A stretch of DNA of 62,959 nucleotides, filler included, from Hausera hauseri (taxonomy: Eukaryota): NCBI GenBank assembly GCA_046269625.1. It is 9 parts of 9 records of this genome, joined end to end, with 100 filler letters (N's around TTAATTAATTAA, not from the genome) between each part and the next. Parts side by side here need not be neighbours in the genome. Positions count along the whole stretch, not along the records: positions 8,738 to 25,148 come from JBJURY010299944.1; 8 more parts are not named here. One strand, given 5' to 3'. Positions 4,058 through 60,889 of the stretch are shown here, piece by piece. The notes beneath the pieces were generated by a model that saw only the letters and a list, made by a program, of their open reading frames with translations, made no database searches and was not told where the DNA came from. The stretch's first letter is position 1; the number at the start of each line of letters is the position of its first letter. A program made the position numbers and the translations under genes.

Positions 4058-4636
4058 AACAATTTGTGAAAATCTTTTCCTGATCATTACATCCGTACTC
4101 TAACATTGTTTTTACATACAGTATGTAATTTTTTCACAAAATTTTTTTTTATTTCTTTGTCGTGTTTTTTTTTTAGCTTGATACATGATTAATCCTTAGA
4201 AACTGCCAATGTAAAGGTTTCCATCATGTTGCATACTTTTTAATTCACTTTTTAACCAATTTAAAGTAGGTGCTTGACTGCTGCAAGAGCCAGTTTACAG
4301 CTGCTCTAAATTTAACGCCTTAAAAAAACAGCTTTTCTTCTGCCTCATCAGAAAAGGCACAACACAGCAAGAGCATTACATCATTGGAAAATTTCTCCAA
4401 TACATTGTTTAATTCTCCCACAGGTTTTTCTACATTTCTATAGAGAAAAACATTGCTGGGAGAAAGATTATCTCCACAGATTACAGTGTTTGTCTCGTTT
4501 TCCTCACAAATCGATGTCTTAATATCTTCAGTGTGCATTTATGTGCTGCTGCAAGCGGCAGTCACTCTCTGTGAGTGCTCAGTCACAAACAGTACAGCAC
4601 AGTAGTTGTGTGTAGGTCAGAGTGTGTGTCTAAATA

Positions 4637-5682
4637 TGTTAGGAAGTGGAAAGCGACGCGTTGCTATGGCAACACGAGCGCTGATCGCTTTCCACTTCCT
4701 TGTTTTGATTTGACTCGTTAGCCAGCGCTGAGCAGATGCACCTGATTCTAATCAGCGCTGTGTATTTAATCCCCTGGTTTTCTCCAGTCCGGTGCTGGAG
4801 CATTACGTGGTGTACATTATGCACGTTGTGAGTAGTCCTTACCTTTTGAGTTGTTCTGTCGTTTGCGGTCCGTTCTAGAAGTAATCTAAGCCTGTTTGTT
4901 TTTGTCGCGGTTTTCTTAGTTCCGCCTCCGAGTCCGTCGCGCTTTACTTTCCGTGTTTTTTCGCCGTTCAGTTCCGTACCCAGTCCTGCGCTTCTCCCCT
5001 CTCGTCATCCTGTGCCTTCTCCTGTCGTATCCATTCCTCTACCCCCAACCCGGACATAAACTGTGTATCCTGTCTGCCATACCTGTGTCAAGCCTGCGTC
5101 CACCTGGTTCCTGTCCTGCTGTGATCCTACCCTCCTGGTTCCTGTCCTGCTGTGGTCCTACACTCCTGGATCCTGTCCTGCCGTTGTCCTGCTCATCTGG
5201 TTCCTGTCCTGCCGCTGTCCCGCACTCCTGTTCCTGTCCTGCCGTTGTCCTGCACTCCTGGTTCTGTCCTGCCGTTGTCCTGCACTCCTGGTTCCTGTCC
5301 TGCCGTGGTCCTACTCTTCTGGTTCCTGTCCTGCCGCAGTCCTGCACTTCTGGTTCCTGTCCTGCCGTTGTCCTGCACACCAGTTCCCGTCCTACCACCC
5401 GGTCCAAGTTCCTGTTGCCTGTCTGTCGTCCTGCCTCCTGGTCCAAGTACTTACCTTTGTGTCTGTCGTCCTACCACCCGGTCCAAGTTCCTGTTTGCCT
5501 GTCTGTCGTCCTGTCACCCGGTCCAAGTACCTACCCTCGTGTCTGTCGTTCTGCCACCCGGTCCCAGTATTAACCTGTTTAGTCTCATTTAGTTATTTAA
5601 TAAACTCTTTATTTTTCCCCAAGACTGTGTGTGTGTGCGTCGCTAGCTGGGTTCCCACCACTAGAACCTCCAACTCCTAACA
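4637..5682 (+). repeat. 5' LTR
   Basis: 8-bp terminal inverted repeat, TATA-like TATTTAA ~4763, AATAAA ~5599, internal ~31-bp tandem repeats ~5104-5380, homologous to 6761-7802. Confidence 0.9.
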
Positions 5683-5683
5683 G

Positions 5684-5694
5684 AATGCTCCAGC
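5684..5694 (+). promoter_or_regulatory. Self-priming primer binding site (Tf1-type)
   Basis: AATGCTCCAGC immediately after the LTR is the exact reverse complement of GCTGGAGCATT at 4794-4804, about 25-30 nt downstream of the TATA box. Confidence 0.8.
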
Positions 5695-5979
5695 CAGACA
5701 TGGAACCCAGCAGCACACACACTAAGGGCTCCTGGCCTGCCCAGATTTTTTCAGGCCAGCAGCCCACCCAGCAGACCCCGCTCAGGCCACAACTGGCCTT
5801 GCTCATCGAGAAGAACCAGCAGCTGTGTGCCCAGGTAGCAGAATTGGGCAAGCTGCTGGGCACGGCTTCCCCCCGTGGTCCAGGTCTCTCGGGTAGCTTA
5901 GGTGACGGTAAGCCCGTTGCTCTCCACCCCGGGAGCTGGTTAGCGTGTCGGTTGGTTGCGGGTCCGTCTGCGCTCCCCG

Positions 5980-6535
5980 TGTCCATCGGCTCCGGTCCCG
6001 TCCGGGGGTCCGACTCTGTCTCCGTCGGCTCCGGTTCCGTCCGGGGGTCCTACTCTGTGTCTGTCGGCTCCGGTTCCGTCCGGGGGTCCGACTCCTTTTC
6101 CGTCAGCTCCTGTACCATCCGGGGGTCCGACCCTGTTTCCGTCGGCTCCGGTACTGTCCGAGGGTCTGACTCCGTGTCCGTCGGCTCCAGTTCCGTCCGG
6201 AGGTCCGAGTCCGTGTCCGTTGGCTCCGGCCCCATCCGGAGGTCTGACTCCGTGTCCCTCGGCTCCGGTTCCACCTGGAAGTCCGACTCAGTTTCCGTCA
6301 GCTCCGGTTCCGTCCGGAGGTCCTACTCCGTGTCCGTCGGCGCCGGCCCCATCCGGAGGTCTGACTCCGTGCCTGTTGGCTCTGGTCCTGCTCGGAGGTC
6401 CGATCCAGTTTCGGTTGGCTCCGGTTCCACCCGGAGACCTGATCCAGTGTCCGTCGGCTCTGGTTCCACCCGGAGGCCCGATCCAGTTTCCGTCGGCTCC
6501 GACTCCTCGTCTGTCAGCTCCGGTTCTGTGCGGAG
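5980..6535 (+). repeat. Degenerate 39-bp tandem repeat within a gag-remnant ORF (ATG ~5700 to 6749)
   Basis: Unit approximately TCCGTCGGCTCCGGTTCCGTCCGGGGGTCCGACTCTGTC (SVSVGSGSVRGSD), about 14 copies. Confidence 0.85.
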
Positions 6536-6760
6536 GACCAAGCCCTTTTTCAGTCTGCGCCGTTTCCGTCCTGAGGTCCAGCCCAGTTTCGTTCGGCCCC
6601 GGCCCCATTTCTGTCAGTCACAGTTCCGGAGCAAGCCGAAGGTCCGGTTCAAGGGCGTGACCGGTCCATTTGGGTCCACAGGGCCCTCCGGCCAGACCCC
6701 CTCCACCCACCCGGGGAAGGTGATTCGGGTGCCAAGAGGCCCCCGTTAGGGGGGGGGTAC

Positions 6761-7802
6761 TGTTAGGAAGTGGAAAGCGAACTGCGCTCGTGTCGCCATG
6801 GCAACACGTCGCTTTCCACTTCCTTATTTTGATTCACCCTATTGGCCAGCGCTGATCGGGCTCGGCAGCTGTGTTGCATCAGGCTGATCAGCGCTGTATA
6901 TTTAAACCCCCGGTTTTCTCCAGTCCGGGGCTGGAGCATTACGTTATGTACATTGTGAGTAGTCCATTACCTTGTTTTGAGTTTATTCTGTCGTTCGCGG
7001 TCCAGTCTGGAAATAATTTAAGCCTGTTTGTTTTGTCGCGGTTTTGGTTCCGCCTCCGAGTCCGTCGCGCTATTATTTCCGTGTTTTTTCGCCGTTTCGG
7101 TTCCTTTACATAGTCCTGCGTTTCTCCCCTCTCGTCATCCTGTGTTCCACCTGTCGTGTCCACTCCTCTACCTCCAATCTGGACATTACCTGTGTATCCT
7201 GTCTGCCACACCCCAAAGTCAAGCCTGTGTCCATCTGTGCATCCTGTCTGTCACACCCCAAAGTCAAGCCTGTGTCCATCTGTGTATCCTGTCTGCCACA
7301 CCCCAAGTCAAGCCTGCGTCCACCTGGTTCCTGTCCTGCTGTGGTCCTGCCCTCCTGGTTCCTGTCCTGCCGTTGTCCTGCACTCCTGGTTCCTGTCCTG
7401 CTGTGGTCCTGCCCTCCTGGTTCCTGTCCTGCTGTGGTTCTACTCATCTGGTTCCTGTCCTGCCGCTGTTCCCGCACTCCTGTTCCTGTCCTGCCGCAGT
7501 CCCGCACTCCTGTTCCTGTCCTGCCGCAGTCCTGCACTCCTGGTTCCTGTCCTGCCGTTGTCCTGCACACCAGTTCCCGTCCTACCACCCGGTCCAAGTT
7601 CCTGCTCGCCTGTCTGTCGTCCTGCCTCCTGGTCCAAGTACTTACCTTTGTGTCTGTCGTCCTGTCACCCGGTCCAAGTTCCTGTTTGCCTGTCTGTCGT
7701 CCTGTCACCCGGCCCAAGTACTTACCCTCGTGTCTGTCGTTCTGCCACCCGGTCCCAGTATTTACCCTGCCGTTTAGTTTATTTAATAAACTCTTTATTT
7801 TT
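6761..7802 (+). repeat. 3' LTR, truncated after the polyA signal
   Basis: Starts TGTTAGGAAGTGGAAAGCGA after the PPT; colinear with 4637-5615; lacks the TCCTAACA end. Confidence 0.88.
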
Positions 7803-8737
7803 ACAAAAGCCTTTTCAGTTTGCATTGTAGTCTCATTTGAATGGGCTTGCATAGTCATGGAAAGTGTATACCCCAAATTGGGGAAATCTTTATAAACCAT
7901 ATTGCGGTAAAGAATGAAATTGATAGATTCTAAGATAATTAAGTTTATGAAATCTTAGCAGGAGAACATAATAAAGAAAAACAACATTTACATTCCGACC
8001 TCGAAATCTTTATCTCGCACAACGAACGCGAAAGACACAAAGGGAAAGAAACATATTGTTTGCATGTGATAGTCACATGACAAATTAGCAAACAACATTA
8101 AAAAAGAATATTATTAGAATAATAGTCAAGCATGAGTACCAGGAAAGTTAAATACGCAGATCAGCAATAGAAAGTTGTACTTATCCTTTTATTATAATCA
8201 CAATTTGTCTCAATAACTAGAGCCCTTGATAAAATATCAAATTCCAGACAAACCAGTAACCGAGCGATGGGCAGTTGGACTGACATTGCTTGCTATAAAA
8301 AGGCAATGGAAGCAAGTCAGAATGAAACTTAACGATCAGCCCAGGAGATAGAAACGAACAACAACGATCATGTGTGAGAAAAGAGAACAAAAGGCATTGA
8401 TACTGTACACTTATCACACCTTGAGTGTCTAGACAAGAGAGATGATAAAAGGAAGACTCGAGGACTGCTGAGGAGGGAGTGAAATGATGACAAAATAAAG
8501 AAAAAGAGAGGAAGATGGTTAAGGCATGGAGAATGGGACTGGAGGTGATGAAAGATGCAGAGTAGAATACGAATTGGGAGCGGGAGGTCTAGTATCAAAG
8601 AAAGGAAGATTTACATTCACTCCAAATGGAATGAACANNNNNNNNNNNNNNNNNNNNNNNNNNNNNNNNNNNNNNNNNNNNTTAATTAATTAANNNNNNN
8701 NNNNNNNNNNNNNNNNNNNNNNNNNNNNNNNNNNNNN

Positions 8738-11700
8738 ATATCTATGACTTTAGAAATTTTAAAATCGACGTAGAAAAATTTAATGGACAACCGGATAAGT
8801 TGATACCATTTTTGAAAGCTTACAAATCACAAAGTACTGCACTAGAAGTTAGTGAAAAGGATCAAATCAGACGTTTACCATTATATTTGACAGACATAGC
8901 CATAGATGCTTATAACGATTTGACTGAAGCCGAGCGAAAAAATTGGAATACCATAAGCATAGCAATGATAGATAGGTTCTTGCCAACCATGTCCCCTCAA
9001 CAACAATTAATTATTTTCCAAAATAGGTTTCAGAAGAATGAATCAGTTACTCAGTTTGCATACTCGTTACGACAGTTAATTTCCAATTATGTAGAAGCTA
9101 TTAAATTGACTAAAATGAGAAAAAATGGAAATAACGAAGTCGAAGAGATCAAAGTTGATACTGATATTTTGTTATCTACACAATTTATTCGTGGTCTCGT
9201 ACCAGATTTGAGGTATAAGGTTCTGGCCGGAAGCCCAAATACATTTGCTGATGCTTTAAAAATGGCACAAAATTTTGAGGCATTTAAACCGCCTAAGCAA
9301 AATAAAGATAATAATTATCAAGCTTCGAGCTCAAATTTTCAGCAAAGCATGCCACGAGAAGATACTAGACAGAATCTATCTAGTAATCAGCAACGAAATG
9401 ATAATTTAGACGCTAACCAAAGTAATAGAAGACCATTTAATAAAGGCAACAATTATCAAAATGATGGTCGTGAAGATATAAATAAAACAGGAAGAGTTAT
9501 AAAATGTTACAGATGTCAGCGTACAGGACATACTGCAAACAACTGTAGAACTCCTAACGACAGATTACCGATAAAAAGCGAGCCTACAACAAAATCAGCA
9601 GCTTTTAATGGTCCTGTAGAAAATTATTACCTTGATTATTGGCCTATGGAAAAACAAGATGCTAAAGAACTTGCTAAATTTCAAAGCTCTAATCCAAACC
9701 GTACGTATCATTCTTGTGGTACGGAAGAAGATGAGGAATTGTTACAAGCTAAGAGAATAATCATTGCAGCACATAAGGATGCAGTACGAAAACACTTTGC
9801 CGGATATCAACTAACGGAACTAGAGCAAATAGCATTTGACTCACTGCCTATACCCGTAGCAGCAGTAGATAAAGATGGAAAGAAAACTATTAAAATGTTG
9901 TCATATGGTTACACCGATGGTTTACCAGCAAAGTTGAAAAAAGTTCCAGAAAAAATTTCCGAAGATACTTTATCAAAACTAAAGAAGCCGAGAAAAGGCT
10001 CAAAATCTCCTCCAAGAAAATTTGCAGATAAGTTTATAAAAGAAGATAAAGAAATTTCCGAAGAAGCTAAAGAAAAAGTTATGAATCAAATGATTAAAGA
10101 TTTAGATCAAATGGCAAGAGGTGAAATACCTTTTGGTTTAGAGAAACTTGATTCTATTAATGCATATTTGCAACCCACCAGCTCATCAAAAGGTAATTAT
10201 AATAAACTTATGAAAGAAATGTACGATTTTCGTAAAACCGAAGTTCAGGAATCGCAAAGAAAACAGATTGACGAGGTTATTGAAGAAGTGCTAAACAAAG
10301 ATAAAACACCTGAACAAATTGAATTAGAAATGTTGCTTAAGGAAGCGCAAGAACTTATAAATAAAGAATTTTCTACATCACAATACGTAGAAGACGTGAT
10401 TATTAAATTAGTTCAGTACAAATTAAAGACAAAAGATTTACCAATTAAGCAAAAACAATTATTGAATGATGATATTAAAGCATTAGAAAGTAAATCCAGC
10501 TACATAAAAAGCAAATTAAATGAATTTCAAGTAGCAAATGACGAAATAGCAGACCTGTTAGACCAAGCACTATCAGTGTCTGAATTGCAAAAATGGAGCG
10601 CCCTCCAAATTTTAGCTCAACGAAGTCAAAAAGAACCTCTTAGTTTGGAAAAATTGGAACAATTAAATGACATTCAAAGCAAATTGCTAGATGTTACTAC
10701 ATCTTTTATAGAATCTATTTCAGAATTAAAGTTTGAAATCCGGAAGTTACTAAATGACAATGAAGATATGGATGACGGCCAGCGAAAGAAACTAACGAAA
10801 ATTCTTAAAGAAATTAGAAAATTAGGTATCGAACCAGATGAGGAAAAAGAACAAAAATTGGAAGAATTCATAGTAACAGTAAAAAGAATCAGAAATAATA
10901 TGTTATATAATGTTGATCTAGATAAAGTAGATTTAGAGTCAGAATCTACCACGCCAAAAACAATGCCCATGGAAGAGGCACAAACCAAAAAAGTGGAGAT
11001 TGTAACAATCTCATCAGATTCTGATGAAGATTTGTACAAACCACAGAGAGATGAATTAGTAAACGTTGCCATTCAGAAAATAGATTTGCAGCAAGAAAAT
11101 ACTGACAACGACTTGGAAAAACAAATAGATGCCTTCAAGAATCATCCTAGTTTTCTAGAAACATTGTTACTGACTTATCTTACTCAAAAACCAGATACTG
11201 AAAACATAAAAAAAGTTGCTCATAAGCTGGTTTCGTTAACCGCTGACGAGTATGCGTATAACGCAACTCCCAGAGTATTGTTAAAGTTGTTAGGAACAAA
11301 TATTAGACGAGTTATAAATCCAGAATTAGATTATGTAAATATCGTAACAAAATTTAACAGCTTAATAATGCCACAAGCCAAATTTTTAGTAAATGATACT
11401 ATAAGACAAATAGACAACCATATCAGAACCAGTATTGACAAACCATTAAATGAGTTGAATTATAATTTTAAAGGACGTTCCTTAAATTTAGACGACTGTA
11501 TTACTGACTTAGGAATGTTACCTCAAAAAACATACATAATAGATGTAGAGGAAGGAGACCTTAAACCCCTACCAGTAGTGCCAGAGAACATCAACTTAAC
11601 TGAGGTTTGTAATGATGATACGGAAATGCTCGAAAACGTAGCAAAATGTACATTGCTAGAATTAAATAAAACAGCAAAGACTAAGCGAACAAAAACAATT

Positions 11701-14700
11701 ACGTTAGCACAACAGTTTGCGAAACAACTTCAAGATTACGAAGTTCCTCAGCTATACAAAGAATACAAAGAAGTAAAAAGCTTAGTAAAAGAAATATTTG
11801 ATATCGATAGAGGTGTGACTAAACCTAACGCGAATCAAAAATGGAGAACCAGAGTAATCGAATTGCTAAAATATATTAAAAAATTGAAGAAAATGCCTGC
11901 ATACAAGAACATTACCTCGGAAGATTTAGCTCAATTACTAGTGGAAAAAACCACTCGAAAAAACCTAGAAAAAGGTATATGTCTCCTCGTGACGGACATC
12001 CATGATCAAAGCGATATAAAGACAATCACTGGAAAGGTTATACAATTAAGTCAAAATATTATACCAAGCAAATGTTCTTGGGATGAGTTATTCTTACGAA
12101 ATAGCCAAACCTTGGCGAAATTCCAACAAGAGGCTGAATTAACTTATAGAACTATTCTAGAAAAAGAAGAAATTTTGTTGCCAAAACTAACCAGTGAATT
12201 GACTAAATCATTGGAAAATGAAATTAAGGAAACTCGGGTTAAAGGAAGCAATGCAGCATATTCATCTATATTCCTCTTGATATTACTATTTATGTCATTA
12301 ATTAGGAAAGGTAATAATATCTTGGCATACGATTGCGAACATATTTATGAAGGAGATTATTACTCCTTGATGGACCTGGATTCATGTCCTGAAGCACATC
12401 CCAGGAATATAACAACCGTTCAAAAGACTTTATATATTTATCATGATCGAGCAGCGGTACAAATAAAAGGATATGAATGCATGCTCACAAGGTCAAGAAC
12501 AGTAACATATTGCGGAATGCATAGTCATGAAACCATTATCATACCAACTACTATACCAGAACCAGAAGCGGTATCACCTGAAGCTTGTAAAATAGCTGTT
12601 GAAACAGGATTTTTAAGATTTGATAGAATGGAATTTAAAGCAGGTATAGGAGAAGTTCATCAAACAGAAAGATATGTTGTCGGAACCAAAGATTTAGGTG
12701 GAAACTGTAATGGAGGAACTTATGATTTAGGAAAAGGACCACAATCGGGTTTAATAATACATGATCAATACAGAATTCAAATAAAACAGCAAACTTACAA
12801 TTTTGACACTAATACAAAAGCTATGATGGATGCTTCATTTTGCAAGTTAGGGAAAGGGTACTGCCACACTATAAATTCAGTCTTGATATGGGACGTACCG
12901 AAAAAATTTGACTGCCATTTAGTATTGATAAAAAAGGGTATATTTAACGTAACTTCAGGCAAGAGATATGCTAAATATTTCGAGACCAACTTCGAACAAA
13001 CTAATGTAAACCAGATACCAGAAATTAAAACACCTACAATTGTTATGTCCGCAAACTTAGTAGGAGGAGTGAAGTTTATCCAACAAGAACCTACATTTAA
13101 ATGTGGAAAGGCTATCCATTCCACGAACTATCCCTCCTATTATATCGCAGATTCAGAAGTGCCAGACGCCGATAATTTACCAGTCGATATTAAAAGCTTT
13201 CTGAACTTAGGAGATCACTTTAATATTAGAGATGACACCTTGTTTTATATAACGCAAAAAACTATGGATGAAATGTATACCGAGATAATTGAAAATTTCT
13301 GTAAAGTGAATCTCGAGACATTAAGGAATAGATTAGCAATTCTAGCAACTAATCCAGAAATGGCTGCAATAACCATGCCGTTAGGCGAAGGAATCCAAGG
13401 AAAAATTATAGGCGAGGCCCTATTCACCTATAAATGTAAACGTATAGATGTGCCATTAGTAATATTGAAGAATATATGTTATATAGAAATTCCGGTAACT
13501 TATAAGAAAGCGATTCGTTATGTCCAACCAATAACGCGAATATTGTTAGATAAAAATACTGAACCCACTAGAATAGTGAATTGTACGACTTTATACCAGC
13601 CTTATATAAAATACGACAACGAAGGCACATGGGTAGTATTACCCGAAAGAAAGAAACCTCATAAAACACCTAAACGTCTCACAATGACAGCTTTACGACA
13701 TGCTGTAGAAAACAATCTGTTCACAGATCTATCAAAAACCACTCTCTATACCAGAGATGAGATAAATGATATGATCCAAGCTTTAAGATATCCAGTACAA
13801 AGAGAACAAGCTTTAAATAAAGCCTTACACCGCATACTGGATGATGGAGTTCAAGATGCTAGATGGGAAAAATTATTAAGTCCAGATCATTATAAGGAAG
13901 TAACTATGAATTTCTTAAAAACTTTATGGGGAGGTTTTATAAAGTTTGGCACAGTTTCAGCGGGAATATTCACTATTTATTTGAGTATACAGACTGCCAA
14001 AGCGATCCTTTCGTCATTATTGAACGCCTATGAAATATATACCTTAACCGGGTTTTCATTAAAAATATTATCTGCCGTCTTCACACCATTTGGTAAGATA
14101 TTAAAAGCTCATGAAGAAAAAAGATGGAAAAATCTAATAGAAAAACATGTTAAAATGGACAACAGAAAAAAGAAACCGCCGCCTAAACCTCCACCGAGGT
14201 TAGATGGTGAGAACAATACTTACACTGAAGTACCGGTGACAAGTACAAATAATCAGGATTTGCCTCTAATTACAGAAAGAATTGAAAGAGATATTAAAAA
14301 CCCCTACGGTGAACACGATAAATACGGAAAATTGTTTGTTATACCGAGAGTTTCAAATCAAACAGACCAAATCAAGAATGAACAATTAAGGCGAACTAGC
14401 CAATACCCAGATTTAACGTTATTCTCACAAAAATGGCAACCGATTACCACGTCAATGACTAGACCAAAAACACCACCCGTATCTATTTCCTCTAGACCAA
14501 CCTCTCCACTACTGACTAACTCGATTTTATTAGAAAATAACAATACGACTGACCTAACCCTCACTGGTAAATTTGTGGTTGAAAACGGTGTGGTCAGAAC
14601 TGCAGGCGTATATTCACTATTACCTTTGGTCGAAAATCCTACAGAAAAACAACTTCAGGCCATAAATCGAGTGCGAGATCCAAGACCGCAAACTACAGTA

Positions 14701-16446
14701 CGAATTAGAAATTTAGAAATAAATGCCTTAATTGACACTGGAGCTACAATATCTCTAATTCATCAAATGCTTATACCAATCAATTACCAGCACGAAGTAC
14801 GCCTACCAAACCCGTCAGATACAGGCAATGTGTCGCTTTTTGGACAAACAGTATTTCCAGTAGGATATTGGACAACGGAAATAATTCTTTACGATCAAAA
14901 GTTGGTTGTGACATTGCAAGTTTTGCAACAGTTGTACCCTAATATGATCATAGGTATGGACACATTGAAAAAATTAAAAGATTCTGTAATAGATTTAACA
15001 ACGGGTCAAGTACATATAAATCACAAATTCCAGTTGCAAGATAACCCAAAATACGTTAATGCTGTATGGATTGAAAATGAAACCATATTACCACCGTATA
15101 GTGAAATATTAATCAAAGGAAAATTATTGGCACCAGAAAACACAATAGTAAAGTTCGAACCAAGAAGATTTTGTAAAGGATACTTTTTTGCTTCAAATTG
15201 TACAATAGTTCAAAATGGTACTATTCCAATAGTAGTAGCAAATTGTAATCCAAAGACAATAATTTTATACCCAAACACTCGAATAGGTGAATTCTATTAT
15301 ACATTTAGCCAAAATATTACGGAGTATTTGGCTGCAACAACCCACGGAGAATTATATGACCATGAAATTTTTCAGCAATTGGTAACAAATATCAAACAAA
15401 GAATAAATGACGAGCAACTAAAAGATATGATAAAATTAGTGAAAGAGTTTGCAGAAATCTTTGCAGTTAATGATGTAGATATTGGATGTACAGACTTAGT
15501 AGAATTTAGATTAAATTTGGTTACAGATGAGAAAACGGGCAAAGAGATAGACTTAAACAAGCAACCAATGCCTAAATGGTACCCTCCACCTCATTCACTT
15601 CAAGCCGAAGTAGTAGAACAGGTTCAAGATTGGTTAAATAAGGGAATTATAGAACCTAGCCAAGCATCATGGGCATCACCAATTGTGATGGTTCCAAAGA
15701 AAAATACCACAAAAAGGAGACTATGTGTTAACTTCGTACAATTAAATAAATATTTAGAAAATCATATCTATCCCATACCACGAATCAAAGAAATAATAAA
15801 TGACTTGAAAGGATGCACCTTATTCACTGCCTTAGATTTACAATGGGGATTTTTGAACATCCCAATAGTAGAATCAGATAAATGGAAAACAGCTTTTAAA
15901 ACTCATACTGGCATATATCAATTTAATAGGATGCCATTTGGTCTAAAAACGGCACCAACTTTTTTCCAGGAATTTATGAGAATAGTTCTGAAAGGAATAC
16001 GGAGTCTATCGTATATAGATGATATTCTAATTGCCTCCAGAACTTGGCACGAACACATGCAACAACTTCGAGAAGTTTTTGAGAGAATACGTGATGCAAA
16101 ATTAAAACTAAACCCATTGAAATGTGACTGGTGTCAAACCTCTGTAACTTATTTGGGTTTCAAGATCTCTGCCAACGGCATTGAAACTAGTCCGCACATA
16201 GTTGCCAAAGTGTTAGAATTTCCTGCTCCTACGAATAAAAAAGAACTGCAATGTTGGTTAGGACTTATTGGATACTACAGTATTTTCATACAAAATTTCT
16301 CCCAAATAAATAGTGTATTATATGAATTGTTACGAAACGATAAAAAATACATTTGGGAAGAAAAACACCAAAATGCTTTTGACATCATGAAAAAAAAATG
16401 GTTTCAGCACCGATTTTACAATATCCAGACTTTGAATTACCATTAA
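8738..16446 (+). CDS. Polyprotein part 1: Gag, helical insert, glycoprotein, aspartic protease, reverse transcriptase
   Basis: 2548-aa ORF from 8800, open to the contig edge. CYRCQRTGHTANNC at 9505-9546; ALIDTGA at ~14725; WASPIVMVPKK, RMPFGLKTAP, YIDD at 16012-16023. Confidence 0.95.
12250..14110 (+). CDS. env: Envelope glycoprotein domain, chuvirus (Jingchuvirales) G-like, putative class III fusogen
   Basis: Hydrophobic signal SIFLLILLFMSLI, then ILAYDC..YSLMDLDSC, CMLTRSRTVTYCGMHSH, GEALFTYKC, CYIEIPV, QPITRIL; N-glycan sequons NIT, NVT, NCT; C-terminal hydrophobic LWGGFIKFGTVSAGIFTIYLSI at ~13925-14020. Pattern matches chuvirus G as I recall it. Confidence 0.8.
15060..15300 (+). other. 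dUTPase-like beta-rich spacer between protease and RT, probably inactive
   Basis: TILPPYSEILI...IPIVVANCNPKTIILYPNTRIG resembles the degenerate dUTPase-fold segment found in many Gypsy pol proteins. Confidence 0.45.
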
Positions 16447-16523
16447 TCTTGAAGACAGACGCTAGTTTAAACGGATTAAGCTATATCTTAGCACAGTAAT
16501 ATCCTAACGAAAAAATCGAACAT
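16390..16523 (+). pseudogene. Disrupted RT-connection/RNase H junction: 1-nt frameshift in an A9 run plus in-frame TAA
   Basis: Shifting at A9 (16390-16398) gives VSAPILQYPDFELPLILKTDASLNGLSYILAQ*YPNEKIEHVVAYGGR, in frame with ORF 16524; TAA at 16497-16499. Confidence 0.9.
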
Positions 16524-19500
16524 GTGGTGGCATATGGAGGTAGAGCCTTATCTAAAGAAGAAAAGAATTATTCAACTACTGAATTGGAACTTTTAGCTGT
16601 CCTAGAAGGATTACGAAATTACGAATTTTATATCTATGGTTACCCTGTGATAGTGTATACAGACCATCAAGCATTAGAAAAACTTGACTGTAAAAACAAA
16701 AGAATATACAATCGTATACAACGATGGAAATTGGAGTTGTTAAATTACAACCCAAAGTTTAAATATGTACCAGGAAAAATGCACACCGATGCAGATGCTA
16801 TATCGCGAACCATATACCCTTCTGAGATCGCATCAGCAGCGCTCACATTGATGGATGAACACGAATTTACAACAATGATGACAGATTTCGCCAACCTTAA
16901 TACCAGCAAACTAGCAACCGTTCAGGATGATGATCCTTTACTGTATATAGTGAAAAAATTTGTACAAACATCAGAAATACCGAACATTGATGAACGTTTA
17001 ACCGATTGGCTAACTGAACATAAGTCCAAACTGATTATCGATCGAAATATACTAAAGTATGTATATAATGACAAAGCTTTAATAGTGATACCCAATTCAT
17101 TGATTAAATCCGTATTACTCCAGGAACATGATTCTCACCTCGCTGGCCATCCTTCGCTAAGAAAGACTATAGAACGAATTAAACTCAAGTACTTTTGGCC
17201 GAATCAATCAGAGGATATAGTTAATTGGGTCAAATCTTGTAAGATTTGCGCAACCCGAAGGGATAGGGGAAGATGTATAAGACCAATGCTTGGAACACTT
17301 CCAGAGCCCAAAGCACCTATGGAAATATGTGCTATGGATATTTCAGGACCTTATCCGATATCCGAATCAGGCTATAAATATATACTGAGTTTTATTGACT
17401 ATTACACAAGTTACATTATATTAATCCCATTAAAAACTATGACTACTGAAGCAATAGCAATGGAACTATTTAACAAACTGATATGCGTATTGGGATCACC
17501 TAGATTAATATTAACTGATAGAGCGCCATATTTTACGAGTCAACTATTTAACGAAGTTTCAAAAGTATTACAAACTAGACATGTGTTAACCACAGCTTAC
17601 CATCCACAGTGTAATGGTAAAGTAGAACGATCTAATAGAACTGTGCAAGGAATTTTATCTGTACAAGTCTCAACAGACCAGAAAAATTGGCCAGATAAAT
17701 TGCCCACTGTAGCCTTCGCCATGAATACCACACCAACGAGAAGTACAAGTAAAACACCATACGAATTGATGTTTGGAAGACTTCCTTTGTTACCTTTAGA
17801 CGTTGAGCTACTACCAACAGCTTTACCATTTACGGGTAACCAGCAAGAAGAAAATTACGTAGTTTTGCTAAAACAATTAAACGAATATGGAGAACAAGCG
17901 AAAGCAGTTAGAGAAGAATACAAAAAATCCTATACTAAACATTACAATAAAAAGGCTCAGACAAATCCCTATAAAAAAGGAGATTTCATCATGATTCACT
18001 ATCCAGTAACAACCAAAGGAAGATCCCTAAAACTGACGCGCACTGGCAAAGGTCCATATAAAGTTGTGGAAGTTAGACCACAAACTCTATTCATTGAAAA
18101 ATCTCCAGGGAAAATAGAGAATGTTTCCGTACAGAATGTAACTAGAGCCCCAAAATCGTACACAGGAAAATTCGGTCTCACATCAACAAATTTGCTTTCC
18201 ACTAATTTGTTAACAATGATTTGCATTCTTATTATTCTGTTATCTTGTACTCATACAAGTTATGGTCAATTTAATATTCCTTATAAATCTATGGTACAGC
18301 TGATTAAGCAGAATCAAAACCATACAGCTAGCGATGAGATATTCAACAAGGAAATACAAGTACTTGGACCAGATTTTGAAAGAGGCTGTATAAAGTTCAA
18401 AAAGAGACATACCAGTAATATCGTGCGAATAGTGATTTTCTACAAAGAAAAATTAGCATTCACTGATTTGGATAATGAGAATAACTCAACATGTCTTTTA
18501 GTAATTAGAGATCAACCATTTTCCTTGCTAGCATTAATTTTTAAAGGTAATAAAGAGAATAAGTGGGACTTACATCTAACAGTCAAATCCAGTATAAAAT
18601 GTTTAATACCTTTTAAAATCAACGAATGTGTTTATGACGTCACCTTCATGATCAAGCAAAATAGGTGCAACATAACTTATAAAGAATATAGAAAGATGGC
18701 AAAACATAATGATTTGGAGATCACCGAAAATTTATTTGTAATGATTTACCCTAAATCTGATCGAATAGCATTCGCTTGGAATTATCAATCAAATATTAAG
18801 AATACACAAGTTAGCGTCACTTGTATAAATCAGCATCATCAACAACGAATTATCCTTGAAAGGAAGCAAAAATATGCTCATTGTGCAAAGTTAAGTTCAG
18901 ATACTGATTACTTAATAGTAATAAAAAATTGCACTCATTATTCAGAATTGTATGCTAGAACCTTACCCAGAGTAAATAGAATAATCAAGTTCAATTATAA
19001 TAAAAATGACTCTAAGACTGATTCACAAACTGTGAAACCAAAAATAGATAATATTGAATCAAGCATGGTTGCGTGTGCCTTCCTAATCATTATATTAAGT
19101 GTAACTTTGTTCTTTGTGTTGGCTATAGGCACTTTAATTATTCCAAAAATAGTACGATACAGCCATAATGACACTATCACGTGTCACTGCCCACTAATTT
19201 CAAGATGGCGGTCGCAGGCTAGTCATCCGCATGAGCAATTATCGCACACACTACACGCGCCCCCACAAATAGTTACATTATTAGCATATTCATTGGTTAT
19301 GTGTTGTTCGCACACCAATAGAGGTGAGTATTTAAATGAAGTTCATTTATTTTCAGTCCTCTACAAATTCAATATGAAACGACAAAATCCGAAAATGACA
19401 AAAAACGATTCTCAAATTCAGTCTAATTTGCTGTATTCCAAGATGAATCCCCAGTATCATGCAGATCAATTGGACTCGCAAACGTTAATCCAGAATTTTG

Positions 19501-21365
19501 GGAGTAAAAGAGGGAGTCTCAACAAAACTATGTCAAAAACCTTCTATAATAATATCCGGAGACAGATGATAAAAATGGACCATTTCGTAGCTTTAAGTGT
19601 GGTTCGAATCCCGAATCAATTAAAGCACGAAATTACTGTAAACCGAAATCTCGGAATTTACTTGATCCAGGAGGCCCAGCAGTTAGAACTAAAGAGATAC
19701 ATGTCCAAAACCGACATGATAGATGGACTAGTAATCCATGTCGCCAGAGGCATGATCAGCTTAAAAACCCGGAGCGAACAGCAGTATCCTGATTCAAACG
19801 TCTGCACGATCTGTGAAGAAGAAACTCTATTTATCAACACTCCCATGAGCATTGATTTAATCCAAGCCAGACCAATGTATGTACCACTCGTTATAATGCT
19901 AGAATGGCTCCTCCCTGAAAAACACCTATATTTACCCAGACCAATGATCTTGGCTCATAATCCTCCTGAAATAGTGCGACAATCCAGGTTGAATTTTATC
20001 AACACCAACCAAAGTAACACAATCCGAATATTAACAGTATCAGTCGGATACATGCAGGATAATAGCCCCTTACCTATCCACGTCATTATCACCAACAAAA
20101 CGGGGACTATATTGTACGAAGCCATAGTTGCCAATAGAAAGAATGTACACAATGTTAATTCAATAAGACATGGCATATTACCGGAGTATATTGCTCATCA
20201 CGGGCAAGACATATTCGATGTCACAAGAGAAATTATTAATTGGCTATTCGGGACCGTGGTAGTTGGGTTGGAAACACATAAAATGTTAGAAGCCTTCGAC
20301 ATACCACTCAATTATTTTGCAGGAATTATAGATTTATTAAAACACGAGGAGATCACCGGACACACGTTTCAACAGTTGACGTTAATGAATATCAGCACTG
20401 TTCTGAAACTACCTGGATCACGAAATGGTCATGGATATGCACAAGACAACCACGGTAAATTACGACTTACTATGGATATTTTTCAGAAGGTAACAAACCC
20501 CTTCCAAGTAGCATGGATACCACCGGAACCTTTTAATAATGTTATTGACCCTGGAGAGCTGTTTTATAACAGGGAAAAATATTTAGCAGAATTCGCTTGG
20601 ATCCATCATGTGATAGAAGGACTTGTTCAGGACCCAGAAGCTATTGTGGATGAAATCATGGATGAGTTAAAAACACCATCCATGTCGGATATTTCAGATA
20701 TCGTTGCAGATGAAGAACGAAAATTACAACTGGAAGATCAGACTCTTGAAACCACTGACGAACAAACATACAATACGGATTGGGGTAAATGGAATCATAA
20801 TACCAGCAATATGAGCTCAATAGCAGTCCAGACAGAGGACACTGATTTCGACAAGTTCGTTAGAAGAATAAAACAAGGATTGAGAAAATCAGAAGTCTTT
20901 ACATTTCCATACGGAATCATTATTTACACGAGAAGCTTCAGCTTTCCCGTAGTAATTGATTCCATCGAGGCACCACTCTATATTGATCAGACAATCCCTC
21001 AAATTACATTACAATCATGGGACAGCAGCAACAACATACTCATTGGATTTATATATGAGAGATCAGTGGACATAAAGATCCTTTTCCTATTCGAAGATTA
21101 TGAAAGACTGTATAAATTACCCATAAGACTGGATGCCGAATTACACGTTAAGCTCCCGGTTCAGGTAAAAAATAATACCGTAGTAACGAAGCTGAAAAAT
21201 GAGCATAAAGGAGGGAAATTGACTTATATCTTGTTAATCAAATGCCAGAAACCTACTATGATCCCGATTGAGCGTGTACCACAAGGAAAGAAACCAGATT
21301 CTGAATTAACATTGACATACAGAATCGAAAATGAAATCAGACAAGAAGTTGACCTGGACTATTGA
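16524..21365 (+). CDS. Polyprotein part 2: RNase H, integrase, signal/ectodomain/TM module, exonuclease-like domain, unknown C-terminus
   Basis: NYSTTELELLAV, VYTDHQAL; HHCC (HDSHLAGH..CKIC); DDE core (AMDISGP, TDRA, VERSN); GPYKVV ~18050; hydrophobic stretches ~18207-18265 and ~19065-19150. Confidence 0.93.
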   Translation: MVAYGGRALSKEEKNYSTTELELLAVLEGLRNYEFYIYGYPVIVYTDHQALEKLDCKNKRIYNRIQRWKLELLNYNPKFKYVPGKMHTDADAISRTIYPSEIASAALTLMDEHEFTTMMTDFANLNTSKLATVQDDDPLLYIVKKFVQTSEIPNIDERLTDWLTEHKSKLIIDRNILKYVYNDKALIVIPNSLIKSVLLQEHDSHLAGHPSLRKTIERIKLKYFWPNQSEDIVNWVKSCKICATRRDRGRCIRPMLGTLPEPKAPMEICAMDISGPYPISESGYKYILSFIDYYTSYIILIPLKTMTTEAIAMELFNKLICVLGSPRLILTDRAPYFTSQLFNEVSKVLQTRHVLTTAYHPQCNGKVERSNRTVQGILSVQVSTDQKNWPDKLPTVAFAMNTTPTRSTSKTPYELMFGRLPLLPLDVELLPTALPFTGNQQEENYVVLLKQLNEYGEQAKAVREEYKKSYTKHYNKKAQTNPYKKGDFIMIHYPVTTKGRSLKLTRTGKGPYKVVEVRPQTLFIEKSPGKIENVSVQNVTRAPKSYTGKFGLTSTNLLSTNLLTMICILIILLSCTHTSYGQFNIPYKSMVQLIKQNQNHTASDEIFNKEIQVLGPDFERGCIKFKKRHTSNIVRIVIFYKEKLAFTDLDNENNSTCLLVIRDQPFSLLALIFKGNKENKWDLHLTVKSSIKCLIPFKINECVYDVTFMIKQNRCNITYKEYRKMAKHNDLEITENLFVMIYPKSDRIAFAWNYQSNIKNTQVSVTCINQHHQQRIILERKQKYAHCAKLSSDTDYLIVIKNCTHYSELYARTLPRVNRIIKFNYNKNDSKTDSQTVKPKIDNIESSMVACAFLIIILSVTLFFVLAIGTLIIPKIVRYSHNDTITCHCPLISRWRSQASHPHEQLSHTLHAPPQIVTLLAYSLVMCCSHTNRGEYLNEVHLFSVLYKFNMKRQNPKMTKNDSQIQSNLLYSKMNPQYHADQLDSQTLIQNFGSKRGSLNKTMSKTFYNNIRRQMIKMDHFVALSVVRIPNQLKHEITVNRNLGIYLIQEAQQLELKRYMSKTDMIDGLVIHVARGMISLKTRSEQQYPDSNVCTICEEETLFINTPMSIDLIQARPMYVPLVIMLEWLLPEKHLYLPRPMILAHNPPEIVRQSRLNFINTNQSNTIRILTVSVGYMQDNSPLPIHVIITNKTGTILYEAIVANRKNVHNVNSIRHGILPEYIAHHGQDIFDVTREIINWLFGTVVVGLETHKMLEAFDIPLNYFAGIIDLLKHEEITGHTFQQLTLMNISTVLKLPGSRNGHGYAQDNHGKLRLTMDIFQKVTNPFQVAWIPPEPFNNVIDPGELFYNREKYLAEFAWIHHVIEGLVQDPEAIVDEIMDELKTPSMSDISDIVADEERKLQLEDQTLETTDEQTYNTDWGKWNHNTSNMSSIAVQTEDTDFDKFVRRIKQGLRKSEVFTFPYGIIIYTRSFSFPVVIDSIEAPLYIDQTIPQITLQSWDSSNNILIGFIYERSVDIKILFLFEDYERLYKLPIRLDAELHVKLPVQVKNNTVVTKLKNEHKGGKLTYILLIKCQKPTMIPIERVPQGKKPDSELTLTYRIENEIRQEVDLDY
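20022..20485 (+). CDS. DEDDh 3'-5' exonuclease-like domain (ISG20/REXO4 type) with degenerate catalytic residues
   Basis: HVIITNKTGTILYEAIV..HGILPEYI..DIFDVTREIINWLFGTVVVGL..IIDL..LTLMNIS parallels REXO4-type RVSIVN..G.VLYD..V..SGIRPE.L..F..VQ.EV..LL.GRILVGH; DxE and later Asp residues are not present. Confidence 0.65.
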
Positions 21366-21657: not shown

Positions 21658-21670
21658 AAGGGTCGGGGAT
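21658..21670 (+). promoter_or_regulatory. Polypurine tract
   Basis: AAGGGTCGGGGAT directly precedes the TGTTGTGG LTR start. Confidence 0.75.
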
Positions 21671-22234
21671 TGTTGTGGATTAGTCAGCTAGTAGTCTAGA
21701 CTAGTTGTACTAGACTGACCATCAAAATCAAAATCCCCGCGCGCGGCTAGTTTAAAAGTGACAGTTAATTTGATAATTGCGCCGGCGCTACAAAATTACT
21801 ATAAATAGTGAGACGAATTTCATTCTCACCGAATAACATTTTTGTTTAATGCTGTTGCTGAATCAATTTTGGGAAATTTTTGACATTTGGAATTTCTAAA
21901 TAGAGATTCATTTTTTAAAACCATTCATAAGTGAGTTTAGTATACGTAATTGTGTTCGTCTTATTTTTATCTTTATTTGGTAAATTGGTGGTTTTTATCA
22001 GTTTATTTGCTCGATTTGGTAAAATACATATTATATATTTTAATTCACTTCTTCTTATAAGTAAAAATATTGAAGCACGTTTTGCAGAGAAAACGTAGCT
22101 AACTAAACAAGTTTTTTATTTCCTCAATATAACAAATACCTACATACAATTAAATAACATACTTTTATCCCTCAGATTTGTGCATTTAAGAATTTTCAAT
22201 TAAAATTTTGATTGAACATTCTTAAATAACAATA
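21671..22234 (+). repeat. LTR (~560 bp) shared between tandem copies 1 and 2
   Basis: Bounded by PPT+TGTTG and by TAACA(ATA)+PBS; TATAAATA at 21800-21807; only one copy visible so the 3' end is uncertain by a few nt. Confidence 0.8.
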
Positions 22235-22237
22235 AAT

Positions 22238-22249
22238 TGGCGCCCGAAC
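22238..22249 (+). promoter_or_regulatory. Primer binding site, tRNA-Lys(UUU)
   Basis: TGGCGCCCGAAC equals the first 12 nt of the canonical tRNA-Lys3 PBS. Confidence 0.88.
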
Positions 22250-22821
22250 TCAAGTACGTTTGATTTACATTTCACCATTGATTTCATACGACGATTTTTA
22301 TCAAGGCGTAATAGGCCTGAATTTACCGTTATTGTTGGAGAAACAAAAATCCGTTTTCGTAATTACCAAACCTTTCTGGATTTCCTTGAAACTCAGAAAC
22401 GTTCTAATAATATCGTGCTTTTTAAGAAAGCTATTGTTATTGAAAAAAGTACTTGAATTCTGGTTGTTCCCCTACATATAACTTGAAACTTTCAACACAC
22501 GTTGTTAACCTTCAAGGGTCGGGGAAAATTGTAGTGTAAAATTGTGCGTTAGAAAACAAAAGTAATTAAATTCTTTTTTGACATACTTAGACTTCTGACT
22601 CCGACAGTCAAGTAGTCGCACAATATAAAATCAGCCAAGACTTAAGTAATAATTAATAAATACCATTGGGAAAAATATACAAATTAAAGTAGCTAAAGCC
22701 AACACTAATCATAAGTCGAAAAACTAGAAGTCAAAGCTTACTTAGATTTAAGGATAAAATAGACTTACCTACTGAAAAAATACCTATAGTTTTAGCAGAA
22801 AAACTTCAAATTAATAAGGAA

Positions 22822-25148
22822 ATGGCTGCTAAAGAAAACAACCTAAATGTTTATGACTTTAGAAATTTTAAGATTGATGTAGAGAAATTTAATGGACAAC
22901 CTGATAAGTTGTTAACGTTTTTGAAAGCATATAAATCTCAAAGCACCGCATTAGAAGTTAGTGAAAAAGACCAAATCAGACGTTTGCCTTTATACTTAAC
23001 AGACATAGCTATAGACGCTTATAATGAGTTGACTGAAGCCGAGCGAAAAAATTGGAACACAATAAGCATAGCAATGATAGACAGGTTTCTGCCGACCATG
23101 ACTCCTCAACAACAGTTAATAATTTTCCAAAATAGATTTCAGAAAAATGAATCAGTTACTCAGTTTGCATACTCTTTACGACAATTGATTTCCAACTATG
23201 TAGAAGCCATAAAATTGGCAAAAATGAGACAAAATGGAAATAATGAAGTCGAAGAGATCAAAGTTGATACTGATATTTTGCTATCTACACAATTTATTAG
23301 AGGTTTAATACCAGATTTGAGGTATAAGGTTCTGGCCGGAAGTCCAAATACATTTGCTGATGCTTTAAAAATGGCACAAAATTTTGAAGCGTTTAAACCG
23401 CCTAAACAAAATCGAGATAATAATTACCAGTCGCCAAATTCTAATTCTCAGCAAAGCATGCCACAAGAAGATCCTAGACGGAATTCTCCTGGCAATCAAC
23501 AACGTAATGATAATTTAGAAAGTATTCAAACTAACAAGAAACCGTTTTATAAAGGCAACAACTATCAAAATGATGGACGAGAAGATGTAAATAAAACAGG
23601 CAGAATTATAAAATGTTATAGATGTCAGCGTACCGGTCATACTGCAAATAATTGTAGAACTCCTAATGACAAATTGCCAATAAAAAGCGAGCCTACAACA
23701 AAATCAGCAGCTTTTAATGGCCCTGTCGAAAATTATTACTTTGATTGCTGGCCAATGGAAAAACTAGATGCAAAAGAACTTGCTAAACTTCAAAATCCTG
23801 ATGCAAACCGTACGTATTATACTTGCGGTACGGACGACGATGAAGAATTGTTACAAGCCAAGAGAATAATTATTGCAGCGCATAAAGATGCAGTTCGAAA
23901 ACATTTTGCTGGATATAAATTAACAGAAATGGAACAAATAGCATTTGACTCATTACCAATACCAATCGCAGCTGTAGATAAAGATGGAAAGAAAACTATT
24001 AAAATGTTGTCTTATGGTTATACAGACGGACTGCCAGCTAAGTTGAAAAAGATTCCAGAAAAAATTTCTGAAGATACATTGTCAAAATTGAAGAAACCTA
24101 GAAAAAGTTCAAAATCCCCTTCAAGGAAACTTGCAGATAAATTCATACAGGATGATAAGGAAATTTCTGAAGAAACTAAAGGAAAAGTTATGAATGAAAT
24201 GATAAAAGATTTAGACCAATTAGCAAGAGGTCAAATACCTTTTGGTTTAGAGAAACTTGAATCTATAAATGCGTACTTGCAGCCTACTAGTTCGTCAAAA
24301 GGCAATTATAATAAACTTATGAAAGAAATGTATGATTTTCGTAAAACTGAAATACAAGAAGACCAAAGAAAACAAATTGACCAGGTTATTGAAGAAGTAT
24401 TAAACAAAGACAAAACGCCTGAAGAAATTGAATTAGAAACCTTACTTAAAGAAGCACAAGAGGTTATAAACAAAGAATTTCCTACATCACAATATGTAGA
24501 AGACGTGATTATTAAATTGGTTCAATATAAATTAAAGACAAAAAACTTGCCAACTAAGCAAAAACAAGCATTGAATGATGATATTAAAACATTAGAAAAT
24601 AAATCCAGCTTTATAAAAAATAAGCTAAATGAATTTCAAGTTGCAAATGACGAAATTACCGACATTTTGGATCAAGCTTTATCAGTGTCTGATTTACAAA
24701 AATGGTCTGCTCTTCAAATTTTAGCTCAACGAAGCCAAAAAGAACCTCTCAGTCTAGAAAAAATAGAAGAACTAAATGACATTCAAAGCAAATTATTAGA
24801 AGTTACCACATCATTTATAGGCTCTATATCAGAATTAAAATTCGAAATTCGTAAACTATTAAATGAAAATGAAGATATAGATACTAGACAAAAAGCTGAA
24901 TTAATAAAAACTCTCAAAGAAATTAGAAAATTAGGTATAAATCCCGATCCAGAAAAAGAACAACAATTAGAGAAACTTATAGTAGCTGTAAATGAGATCA
25001 GAAATAATATGTTATACAGTGTAGACTTAGATAAAGCAGATTTGGAATCAGAAATTACAACACCAAGTACGACAGCCATGAAAGAGATAGAAGAAAAGAA
25101 AACGGTTACAGTAGTGATCTCATCAGATTCTGATGAAGATTCACTTAA
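22822..25148 (+). CDS. gag: Gag and helical insert of tandem copy 2, truncated by contig end
   Basis: Colinear with 8738-11035; ATG start MAAKENN; identical CCHC knuckle; many synonymous differences. Confidence 0.95.
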
Positions 25149-25438: not shown

Positions 25439-26671
25439 TTAGTTTTTTGACGGCTTATGAAACTTGCAGCCGGGTCGACAGACCTTTGCATCTGGACCGA
25501 AATAGTTGTGATAAATGCAAGTGTCTTGCATTTTTACGTTTGCCGGTGGCTTGTTGAATTGACAACCATGGTAGCATTTATAGGCGGATTCGCCAAATCG
25601 AGTGTGGAAATGGCAAATTTTAAAAAATTTGCCTTTCTTTCGCTTGGGAAATTGGCGCCTAGATTGCGGTTTGTCTCTGGCTGGCGGATTTTTGTGCGTT
25701 ACAAGTGCCTGCAATGCGGCAATGATAGTATCCAGCTGATTTTGCTGGGTCGTTGTGACGGAATGGATATTTTTCGTCAGTGCAGATTCTACGGTGCCTT
25801 TAGTACACTCGTATATTTTGTCGGCTTTTAATGCCATATCGTCCAAAGTGGTATAGGGCGGTAATAGCACCAATGGCGCTTAAATTTGATTGGGCAAACT
25901 ACTTAGGAAGTAGCGCCGTAGTATATGCTGGTTGGTGTGGAAGTCCAACTCAGCACTGCTCAGGTCTGAGCGTAACTTGTGAAGCAGAGCAGACGGTTTT
26001 CTATTGCCTGTCTGTCGCTTGGTGAAGACCAAGTTGAACTGGACTTGTTGGGATGGTAGATATGCTTTGCATGTGGTTGCTTTGATTTTGTCGAACGGTT
26101 TTTCATTTGACAGTAGCGTGTCCAGATCCGTTATGGCTGCAAGCGTTGTTGGCTGCAGGTATTGAATGAGTGTTAAGGCCTTGTTTAGTTGGCCAGTGAT
26201 GCTGCATTGAGTAGCCCATGTTTCAAACACATGGAACTACTTCAATATCGTTCCGGCCGAACCTATGAAGAAAGTTGGACATTGTAATTTGGGTGGTTTA
26301 GCTTATGCTGCTGAAGCAGTTTCTACTTTTTTGTCAGGCGTAAGGTTGTCAACGCCTCCTTTTAGTTTGCGGGTTGCAAGCAGTGTCGCATTGTTCGTAG
26401 GGAAATAATCCGAAATGGGATTGTCCCATGGACGCAAAATTTTTGAGTTGTGTGAAAAAATGTGGTCCGAACATAAAATGGCGAGCTGTTGTAACATTGC
26501 CTTAACGGACATGTGTTCCAAGAAGCGATACGCTTTCGTGTTGCGTAATCCGCGTATAAAAAATTGCATCACTTGCGGTTTTGTTGTGTCATTGGAATCC
26601 TGTGCCGAATTAACTGTGTTGGTGCGTGTGTTAGTGCTAGGATATCTTAGCACTTGTTCAGAATCACTCAT
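25439..26671 (-). pseudogene. gag: Ubiquitin-like domain-Gag fusion of a second Gypsy family, three in-frame stops
   Basis: ORFs 26303-26671, 25880-26230 and 25439-25873 share one frame (stops at 26303, 26237, 25880). KLQCPTF..(W)F capsid-like start; two C-x2-H-x2-FG-x2-A-x2-C-x3-C knuckles; A AAA AAC slippery site before the stop. Confidence 0.8.
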
Positions 26672-33998: not shown

Positions 33999-34375
33999 TG
34001 ATATTTTTTGTTGTTTTCACAGAAATGCTAAAAGTAATGTTGAAAAAGTAATGTTGACTTCAATATGTTCTATCAATTTTTATATGAAAAACTTTAACAT
34101 TTCCATACATACATTTGTGTTAAATAGTACCAACAATGTATATACATTATGAAATATAATATAGAAATAAGTTTTACCCAAACTGTGATTAGAAGAACAA
34201 AGAGAGCCAAATAAGTGGGTTTTCAAATAAGATTGACTGTAGATAATTACAAACAAGAAAGTGTTATAAAAAGGTAACGAGTAGCTTGTTATATTTCTGT
34301 GGCATTGTGCAAATTTTTACTTATGCCAAATTTTATTTAAGAACTTCAGTTTTGAACAGTTTTCGTTTGTGGCCA

Positions 34376-60882: not shown

Positions 60883-60889
60883 CTACTTG

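Follow-up and report, generated by a model that had tools for sequence, protein, structure and literature searches.

The contig JBJURY010299944.1 of Hausera hauseri (GenBank assembly GCA_046269625.1) carries a long retroelement with a viral-type envelope glycoprotein between Gag and protease. This raises the question whether the locus represents a new enveloped lineage that captured its glycoprotein independently, as a sequence-only reading had proposed, or a member of a group already described. The window, i.e. the whole stretch of DNA that was analysed, comprises 62,959 nucleotides including filler and consists of contigs with N linkers between them. The element is located on the contig at 8738-25148, and all of its features described below are on the plus strand. 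It is a real retrovirus-like mobile element of the Ty3/gypsy type, with a predicted fusion protein in frame between Gag and protease.

Open frame, domain order and surroundings

Since the contig starts at 8738, the 5′ end of the element and its 5′ LTR are cut off, and contig ends truncate the element on both outer sides. An ORF at 8686-16446 is open over 2586 codons when counted from the N linker, and over 2568 codons at 8740-16446. There are no stop codons in 8740-16443, compared to 109-262 in each of the other five frames, and the probability of this by chance is ∼1e-90. A second frame (16500-21365) encodes RT_RNaseH, Integrase_H2C2 and rve domains according to Pfam, followed by ∼1050 extra residues. 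Both frames together span 4207 codons, in agreement with the earlier proposal that one frameshift and one stop separate the first frame from a polyprotein of ∼4,200 aa extending through RNase H, integrase and 3′ extras. The open frame and its Pfam matches also bear out the proposed order of Gag with a CCHC knuckle, insert, signal-like segment, glycoprotein, protease and reverse transcriptase (RT) in a single frame.

Gag (8740-9600), the start of which is lost at the contig end, contains a CCHC knuckle at 9505-9546 (Pfam zf-CCHC, aa 254-270, E 5e-4); a Retrotrans_gag match is found on the second Gag copy described below (E 0.002). The insert (9601-12246) is ∼870 aa long, charged and cysteine-poor, and no Pfam or NCBIfam family was matched. 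Comparison of the two copies gave a dN/dS of 0.05 for the first 200 codons of Gag, 0.11 for the 467 codons of the insert common to both, and 0.10 over 757 codons; the insert is therefore under constraint. A predicted internal signal-peptide-like segment (12247-12324, hydropathy 1.87) precedes a gB-type (class III-like) fusion glycoprotein, G (12322-14190), with 14 cysteines. Monjiviricetes_fusion (PF24664) matches aa 1176-1816 at E 1.1e-73, covering profile positions 4-628 of 653, and this gB-type (chu-like) ectodomain match sits between the signal segment and a membrane anchor. The C-terminal anchor (∼13912-14085) is long and weak, with a Kyte-Doolittle maximum of 1.43.

The aspartic protease (14677-14979) has its DTG at 14734 (RVP, aa 1980-2080, E 1.4e-8), and the RT (15400-16446) its YIDD at 16012 (RVT_1, aa 2318-2476, E 5.5e-30). 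RNase H and integrase, the latter with HHCC and core domains and a GPY motif at 18051, occupy 16500-18150. The Pol order PR-RT-RH-IN given by the Pfam positions, together with the GPY motif, is the Ty3/gypsy arrangement. Among solved structures the RT is nearest to Ty3 (E 4e-49), followed by caulimovirus-type (1e-30), foamy virus (1e-27) and MLV (1e-21) enzymes, with no BEL/Pao RT among the rows. The gypsy identity assigned earlier is thereby supported. The best database matches of the RT are gypsy-type, with 27-40% identity to anything found, and a metagenome scan returned 80 loci with generic gypsy RT at 28-40% identity. None of the 87 loci and 46 proteins recovered matched G, the insert or the tail.

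Three-frame translation places a break at the start of RNase H (16430-16499), consisting of a frame change and an in-frame stop: the first frame is terminated at 16444-16446, and the RNase H frame has a stop at 16497-16499. The copy is thus broken at two places and, as a copy though not as a family, falls outside the uninterrupted-ORF rule given in the part of PMC13524379 considered here. A programmed frameshift was discounted, as the new frame itself runs into a stop.

Downstream of the second frame, a polypurine tract-like motif (PPT; 21658-21670) and a primer-binding-site-like motif (PBS; 22238-22249), which we take to be of the tRNA-Lys type, enclose a likely LTR of 561 nt (21671-22231, TG...CA). 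Its ends are predicted, and self-BLAST detects a single LTR on the contig. A second copy (22822-25148) comprises Gag and the first half of the insert before being cut by the contig end; it is 84.8% identical in nucleotides and 85.7% in protein, and the repeat unit is 14,109 nt. Two copies, 85% identical, thus follow each other in the same orientation with one LTR between them (21671-25148), an arrangement that may stem from tandem insertion, from recombination of copies or from an assembly error. The PPT-like 12-mer at 21658-21669 recurs exactly at 22514-22525, ∼265 nt behind the PBS within the second copy's leader (chance 0.03), and the start of the PPT-LTR region folds into a hairpin (z -3.1).

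Other repeats and genes are present elsewhere in the window. GC-rich tandem repeats with periods of 31-45 nt (4058-8000) form two diverged blocks 2.1 kb apart, with a composition unlike the rest. Together with an ORF at 32712-34016, these repeats look to us like fish repeat DNA, and the assembly may mix organisms. On the minus strand, a 307-aa open frame cut by a contig end (28602-29525) contains a number of hydrophobic segments and shares the A-rich codons of the main element. No Pfam family matches this frame, which could represent cargo from the 3′ part of another element. It is followed at ∼25440-26650 (minus) by a broken stretch that looks Gag-like by eye. A fragment at 60873-61364 resembles, by eye, an RT of the Penelope/non-LTR type. 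An intron-less TRAF-type gene with a RING finger and a MATH domain (Pfam E 7e-41) is found at 46623-48101 (minus), and MATH/TRAF cargo is described in Burro elements (PMC6431247).

Sibling copies and assembly integrity

Sibling copies were viewed as short contigs of one public run, possibly the source of the assembly itself. At 85% likeness, 13,569 run contigs map to the element contig and all 30 of 30 bins are covered. Their summed depth drops in the tail and LTR relative to G and RT, but this measure cannot rank parts and no conclusion is drawn from it. Among 15 of the 21 joints, none removes G alone. At 90% likeness, 4789 contigs map to 11900-16700, and those listed contain no joint and no indel. 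Contigs covering 12198-12354 and 14114-14576 match without a difference where they cross the beginning and the cytosolic end of G, and one site of G is covered by up to 35 variant contigs. Third codon positions hold 8 of the 10 listed differences in G (p 0.003), 20 of 24 in protease-RT, and 31 of 39 overall. Among its copies G therefore varies like a constrained coding region, the differences being mostly at third positions. The claim that G is common to the sibling copies is supported, as variant contigs cover G and no listed junction skips it. At the break site no indel or difference is present among those listed for sibling contigs, and no intact sibling was seen among these short contigs of the one run.

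These data bear on the explanation that the locus is an assembly chimera, in which G or the 3′ tail would derive from other repeats. The contig is short and comes from a repeat-rich assembly, and both of its ends fall within Gag. A single LTR separates the two 85% identical copies, and none of the listed contigs spans the element or connects G with the protease across the intervening linker. Against a chimera, the frame is open over both G junctions, Gag, the insert, G and Pol have similar GC3 values (0.24-0.32), and contigs traverse the start and tail of G unchanged. The domain order is moreover that of published relatives. These checks are less extensive for the tail and for the junction of the tandem copies. 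We regard a chimeric origin as very improbable.

The fusion glycoprotein and its likely relatives

The in-frame position of env ahead of the protease and behind Gag has been known since 2019 and was mapped across three phyla in 2026, according to the parts of the two reports used here (PMC6431247, PMC13524379). As the GAG-ENV-POL order is already published there, the suggestion of a new lineage with a new architecture is not supported. Burro/GYPSM1 of planarians is a single ORF of 4,873-5,140 aa in which env separates gag from pol without a change of frame (Arkhipova and Yushenova 2019, PMC6431247). Its env matches mononegavirus fusion glycoproteins, and extra cargo domains are found within the polyprotein. 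The window element shares with it the single-ORF plan, a Gag with CCHC, a long insert, the in-frame env and the order PR-RT-RH-IN. Peculiar to Burro, in the sections of that report considered here, are Smc, MATH, BIR, ankyrin, BCL2-like and dUTPase-like parts and internal regions of ∼25 kb. None of the Smc, MATH, BIR, ankyrin, BCL2-like or dUTPase families was detected by Pfam in either frame of the window element, whose repeat unit of 14,109 nt also differs from the ∼25 kb of Burro; the element would work like Burro but is not assigned to it. A simple heptad scan of the insert revealed no strong coiled coil, which leaves a likeness of this region to the Smc region of Burro without support. 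Unlike in Burro as described there, the cargo of the window element is placed after the integrase.

Chary and Hayashi (2026, PMC13524379) describe GAG-ENV-POL Ty3/gypsy elements that carry an env of the gB type; these elements come from Nematoda, Bryozoa and Platyhelminthes and are not monophyletic. In the part of their report covered here, 10 bryozoan and 9 flatworm elements are tabulated and one Schmidtea family has 215 copies; published regions of up to ∼18 kb would imply an ORF of ∼12 kb, given 3-kb flanks. The window element resembles their planarian C1a group in its Ty3/gypsy Pol, a gB-type env between gag and pol, multiple copies, an LTR and a PBS. The cysteine pattern of G and its domain II end motif are like those of Schmidtea elements 1-6. 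The text of their report considered here does not state whether gag, env and pol lie in a single frame, and it mentions no membrane protein or exonuclease after the integrase, in contrast to the window element.

The end motif, TP-x9/10-G-xx-F[IL]-x5/7-KC[GSD]-x5-TNY, was derived from the six planarian C1a rows of that table and occurs once in the window protein, at 13030. TNY ends domain II in six of the six planarian rows, and the other 11 of its 17 occurrences in the table stand elsewhere. By eye, the cysteine spacing of G is like that of the C1 rows, and the end of domain II like that of the six planarian rows. Judged by eye and from the one motif taken from those rows, G is likely akin to planarian C1a env. 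Since it bears this planarian-group signature, G was probably inherited rather than newly captured. Of the parts of the element, only G suggests a flatworm host. The same cysteine pattern and end motif speak against the independent env capture proposed in the sequence-only reading. Three word-based searches found no relatives of G, fused or alone, by a method that is insensitive and misses the published planarian rows, so that this outcome does not speak for uniqueness; viral contigs likewise contained no relative of G.

Nematode endogenous retroviruses are reportedly organised as a continuous gag-env-pro-pol frame, a description attributed to Sacco et al. in 2022. For the nematode elements from that study, a Metavirus-type Pol with env before pol is given (as cited in PMC13524379). 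The domain I-II pattern of nematode env rows differs from that of G in the few of the 19 C1 rows that were compared. The mosquito element Anakin (Dezordi et al. 2020, PMC7642597) carries a glycoprotein of the same superfamily with the CGMHSH motif that is also present in G; the BEL/Pao Pol and an env placed after pol are features of its own (as cited in PMC13524379).

The polyprotein model and the tail after integrase

We consider it probable that the locus is a broken copy of a multi-copy GAG-ENV-POL Ty3/gypsy element of the published type. It is likely planarian-related through G, and its predicted polyprotein would be threaded through the ER membrane and cut into Gag, G, Pol and a lineage-specific tail. 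The membrane-threaded polyprotein proposed earlier is plausible, with a topology taken from hydropathy. Gag and the insert would stay cytosolic, and the segment at 12247 would send G into the lumen, where signal peptidase would free it. The C-terminal anchor of G would return the chain to the cytosol, and the element protease would release protease, RT-RNase H and integrase there. A weak point of this topology is the length of the G anchor, which could allow two passes and would then place the protease on the wrong side of the membrane. A further segment, at 18192, is predicted to direct a second, receptor-like membrane protein into the lumen, and the cytosolic end of the tail, probably an inactive exonuclease domain, may bind RNA. 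Cleavage by signal peptidase and by the element protease would yield equal amounts of the individual parts. Gag may assemble on these membranes, so that enveloped particles would bud and move the element between host cells as in Drosophila gypsy, for which movement between cells via particles is discussed in PMC13524379.

Two other explanations accept the element as real. A separate gypsy lineage could have captured the glycoprotein of a chu-like RNA virus and converged on the GAG-ENV-POL order. Such a history would agree with the polyphyly of GAG-ENV-POL elements in the POL tree of PMC13524379, with the low identity of the RT to anything found, and with the presence of CGMHSH in mosquito BEL and insect env rows of that report. 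The domain II end motif and the spacing of G, however, match planarian env, while insect and BEL rows end differently, and the available text of PMC13524379 argues for an ancient env with rare exchange; we therefore judge an independent capture unlikely. Alternatively, env may have been retained for a function inside the cell, where it would anchor assembly at ER membranes, in an element that no longer makes infectious particles. The copy is broken, a furin-type R-x-[RK]-R site is absent from both frames, and infectivity is described as unshown for nearly all such elements in PMC13524379. Against this, the whole ectodomain of G matches the fusion-protein profile and is constrained, and gB-type env proteins do not all conserve a furin site (PMC13524379, in the portion considered), which makes an exclusively intracellular function quite improbable. 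The published-type element with a predicted ER-threaded polyprotein remains our preferred explanation.

The tail of ∼1050 residues begins with a second predicted membrane protein (18192-19127), in frame after the integrase. It consists of the signal-like segment (18192-18248, hydropathy 2.37), a domain of ∼270 aa with eight cysteines, and a strong transmembrane segment (19071-19127, hydropathy 2.97), and is followed by ∼740 further residues. The sequence of this domain recalls fibronectin type III by eye. A single-sequence structure model of 18258-19070 is poor (pLDDT 34), and its best Foldseek match has E 0.015, with none at or below 0.001. About 33 of the best 44 rows are fibronectin type III (FN3) or cytokine-receptor chains, judged from their titles. 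The model thus suggests a weak resemblance of the ectodomain to FN3, to be taken as a lead only.

The region at 19563-20567 is assigned, from homologues and a profile, to a conserved partner domain and, from ∼20016, an ISG20/REXO4-type DEDDh exonuclease domain. A full HMMER search with the tail detected seven proteins (E 2e-8 to 8e-4), all over ∼19340-20440. RNase_T of Pfam is matched by four of these seven homologues and lies above the cut-off in two. A tail profile built from nine sequences, including that of the window, matched ISG20L2 (E 1.6e-17), ISG20 (1e-9) and SDN1 (5e-9), as well as PolC and DnaQ, and hhalign of the tail group against six DnaQ-family sequences gave a probability of 94%. 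The window tail alone had no exonuclease match in Pfam, NCBIfam, PDB or phage data; it reached E 0.032 against DnaQ in BLAST and 0.06% in hhalign, and one of six bacterial or viral exonucleases scored above shuffles (14 of 1000). A model of the exonuclease region of the window alone was unusable (pLDDT 30), with no meaningful fold match. As judged from sequence comparison, and by way of its homologues only, the tail domain is homologous to the DEDDh fold. The first catalytic D-x-E motif is present in four of the seven homologues, and absent from the other three and from the window copy; the domain is therefore probably inactive here. The homologues (P0047-P0053) have a conserved domain of ∼150 aa ahead of the ISG20-type exonuclease, and P0049 adds a RING finger. 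No tail homologues were found in viral contigs. The C-terminal ∼265 aa (20568-21365) have no family above cut-off and no homologue over this part.

Comparable cargo is known from LTR elements of bdelloid rotifers, where an exonuclease or a transmembrane ORF3 lies downstream of pol (Rodriguez et al. 2017, PMC5408684). In the rotifer elements, as presented in the part of that report covered here, ORF3 is separate and the exonuclease is of the DEDDy/RNase D type with its catalytic residues present. In contrast, the window tail is in frame, of the ISG20/REXO4 (DEDDh) type, without the catalytic motif, and located behind a membrane anchor. A weak test, a literature search in which a superfamily survey (PMC3985635) was the sole entry for exonucleases in LTR elements, yielded neither an in-frame membrane-anchored DEDDh derivative in LTR elements nor, in the portions of the reports on related elements that were covered, an in-frame tail of signal, FN3-like domain, anchor and exonuclease.

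A bolder interpretation is that a branch of GAG-ENV-POL elements extended its polyprotein past the integrase with a surface protein of the cytokine-receptor (FN3) type and a dead ISG20-like exonuclease. The chain would then cross the membrane four times and, in addition to the gB-type fusogen, supply a protein for attachment or as a decoy, and a guard that binds RNA. We put this forward as speculative and, at present, unlikely to be correct in full. The element adds one divergent family to the known GAG-ENV-POL order, and its worth lies in the tail, which adds a DEDDh exonuclease derivative to the cargo of LTR elements. How gB-carrying elements enter cells is called unknown in PMC13524379, since herpesviruses need further glycoproteins. 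The additional membrane protein predicted in this polyprotein is a candidate partner for the fusogen and, if the bolder interpretation is true, would bear on the entry of gB-only retroelements into cells in the absence of partner glycoproteins.
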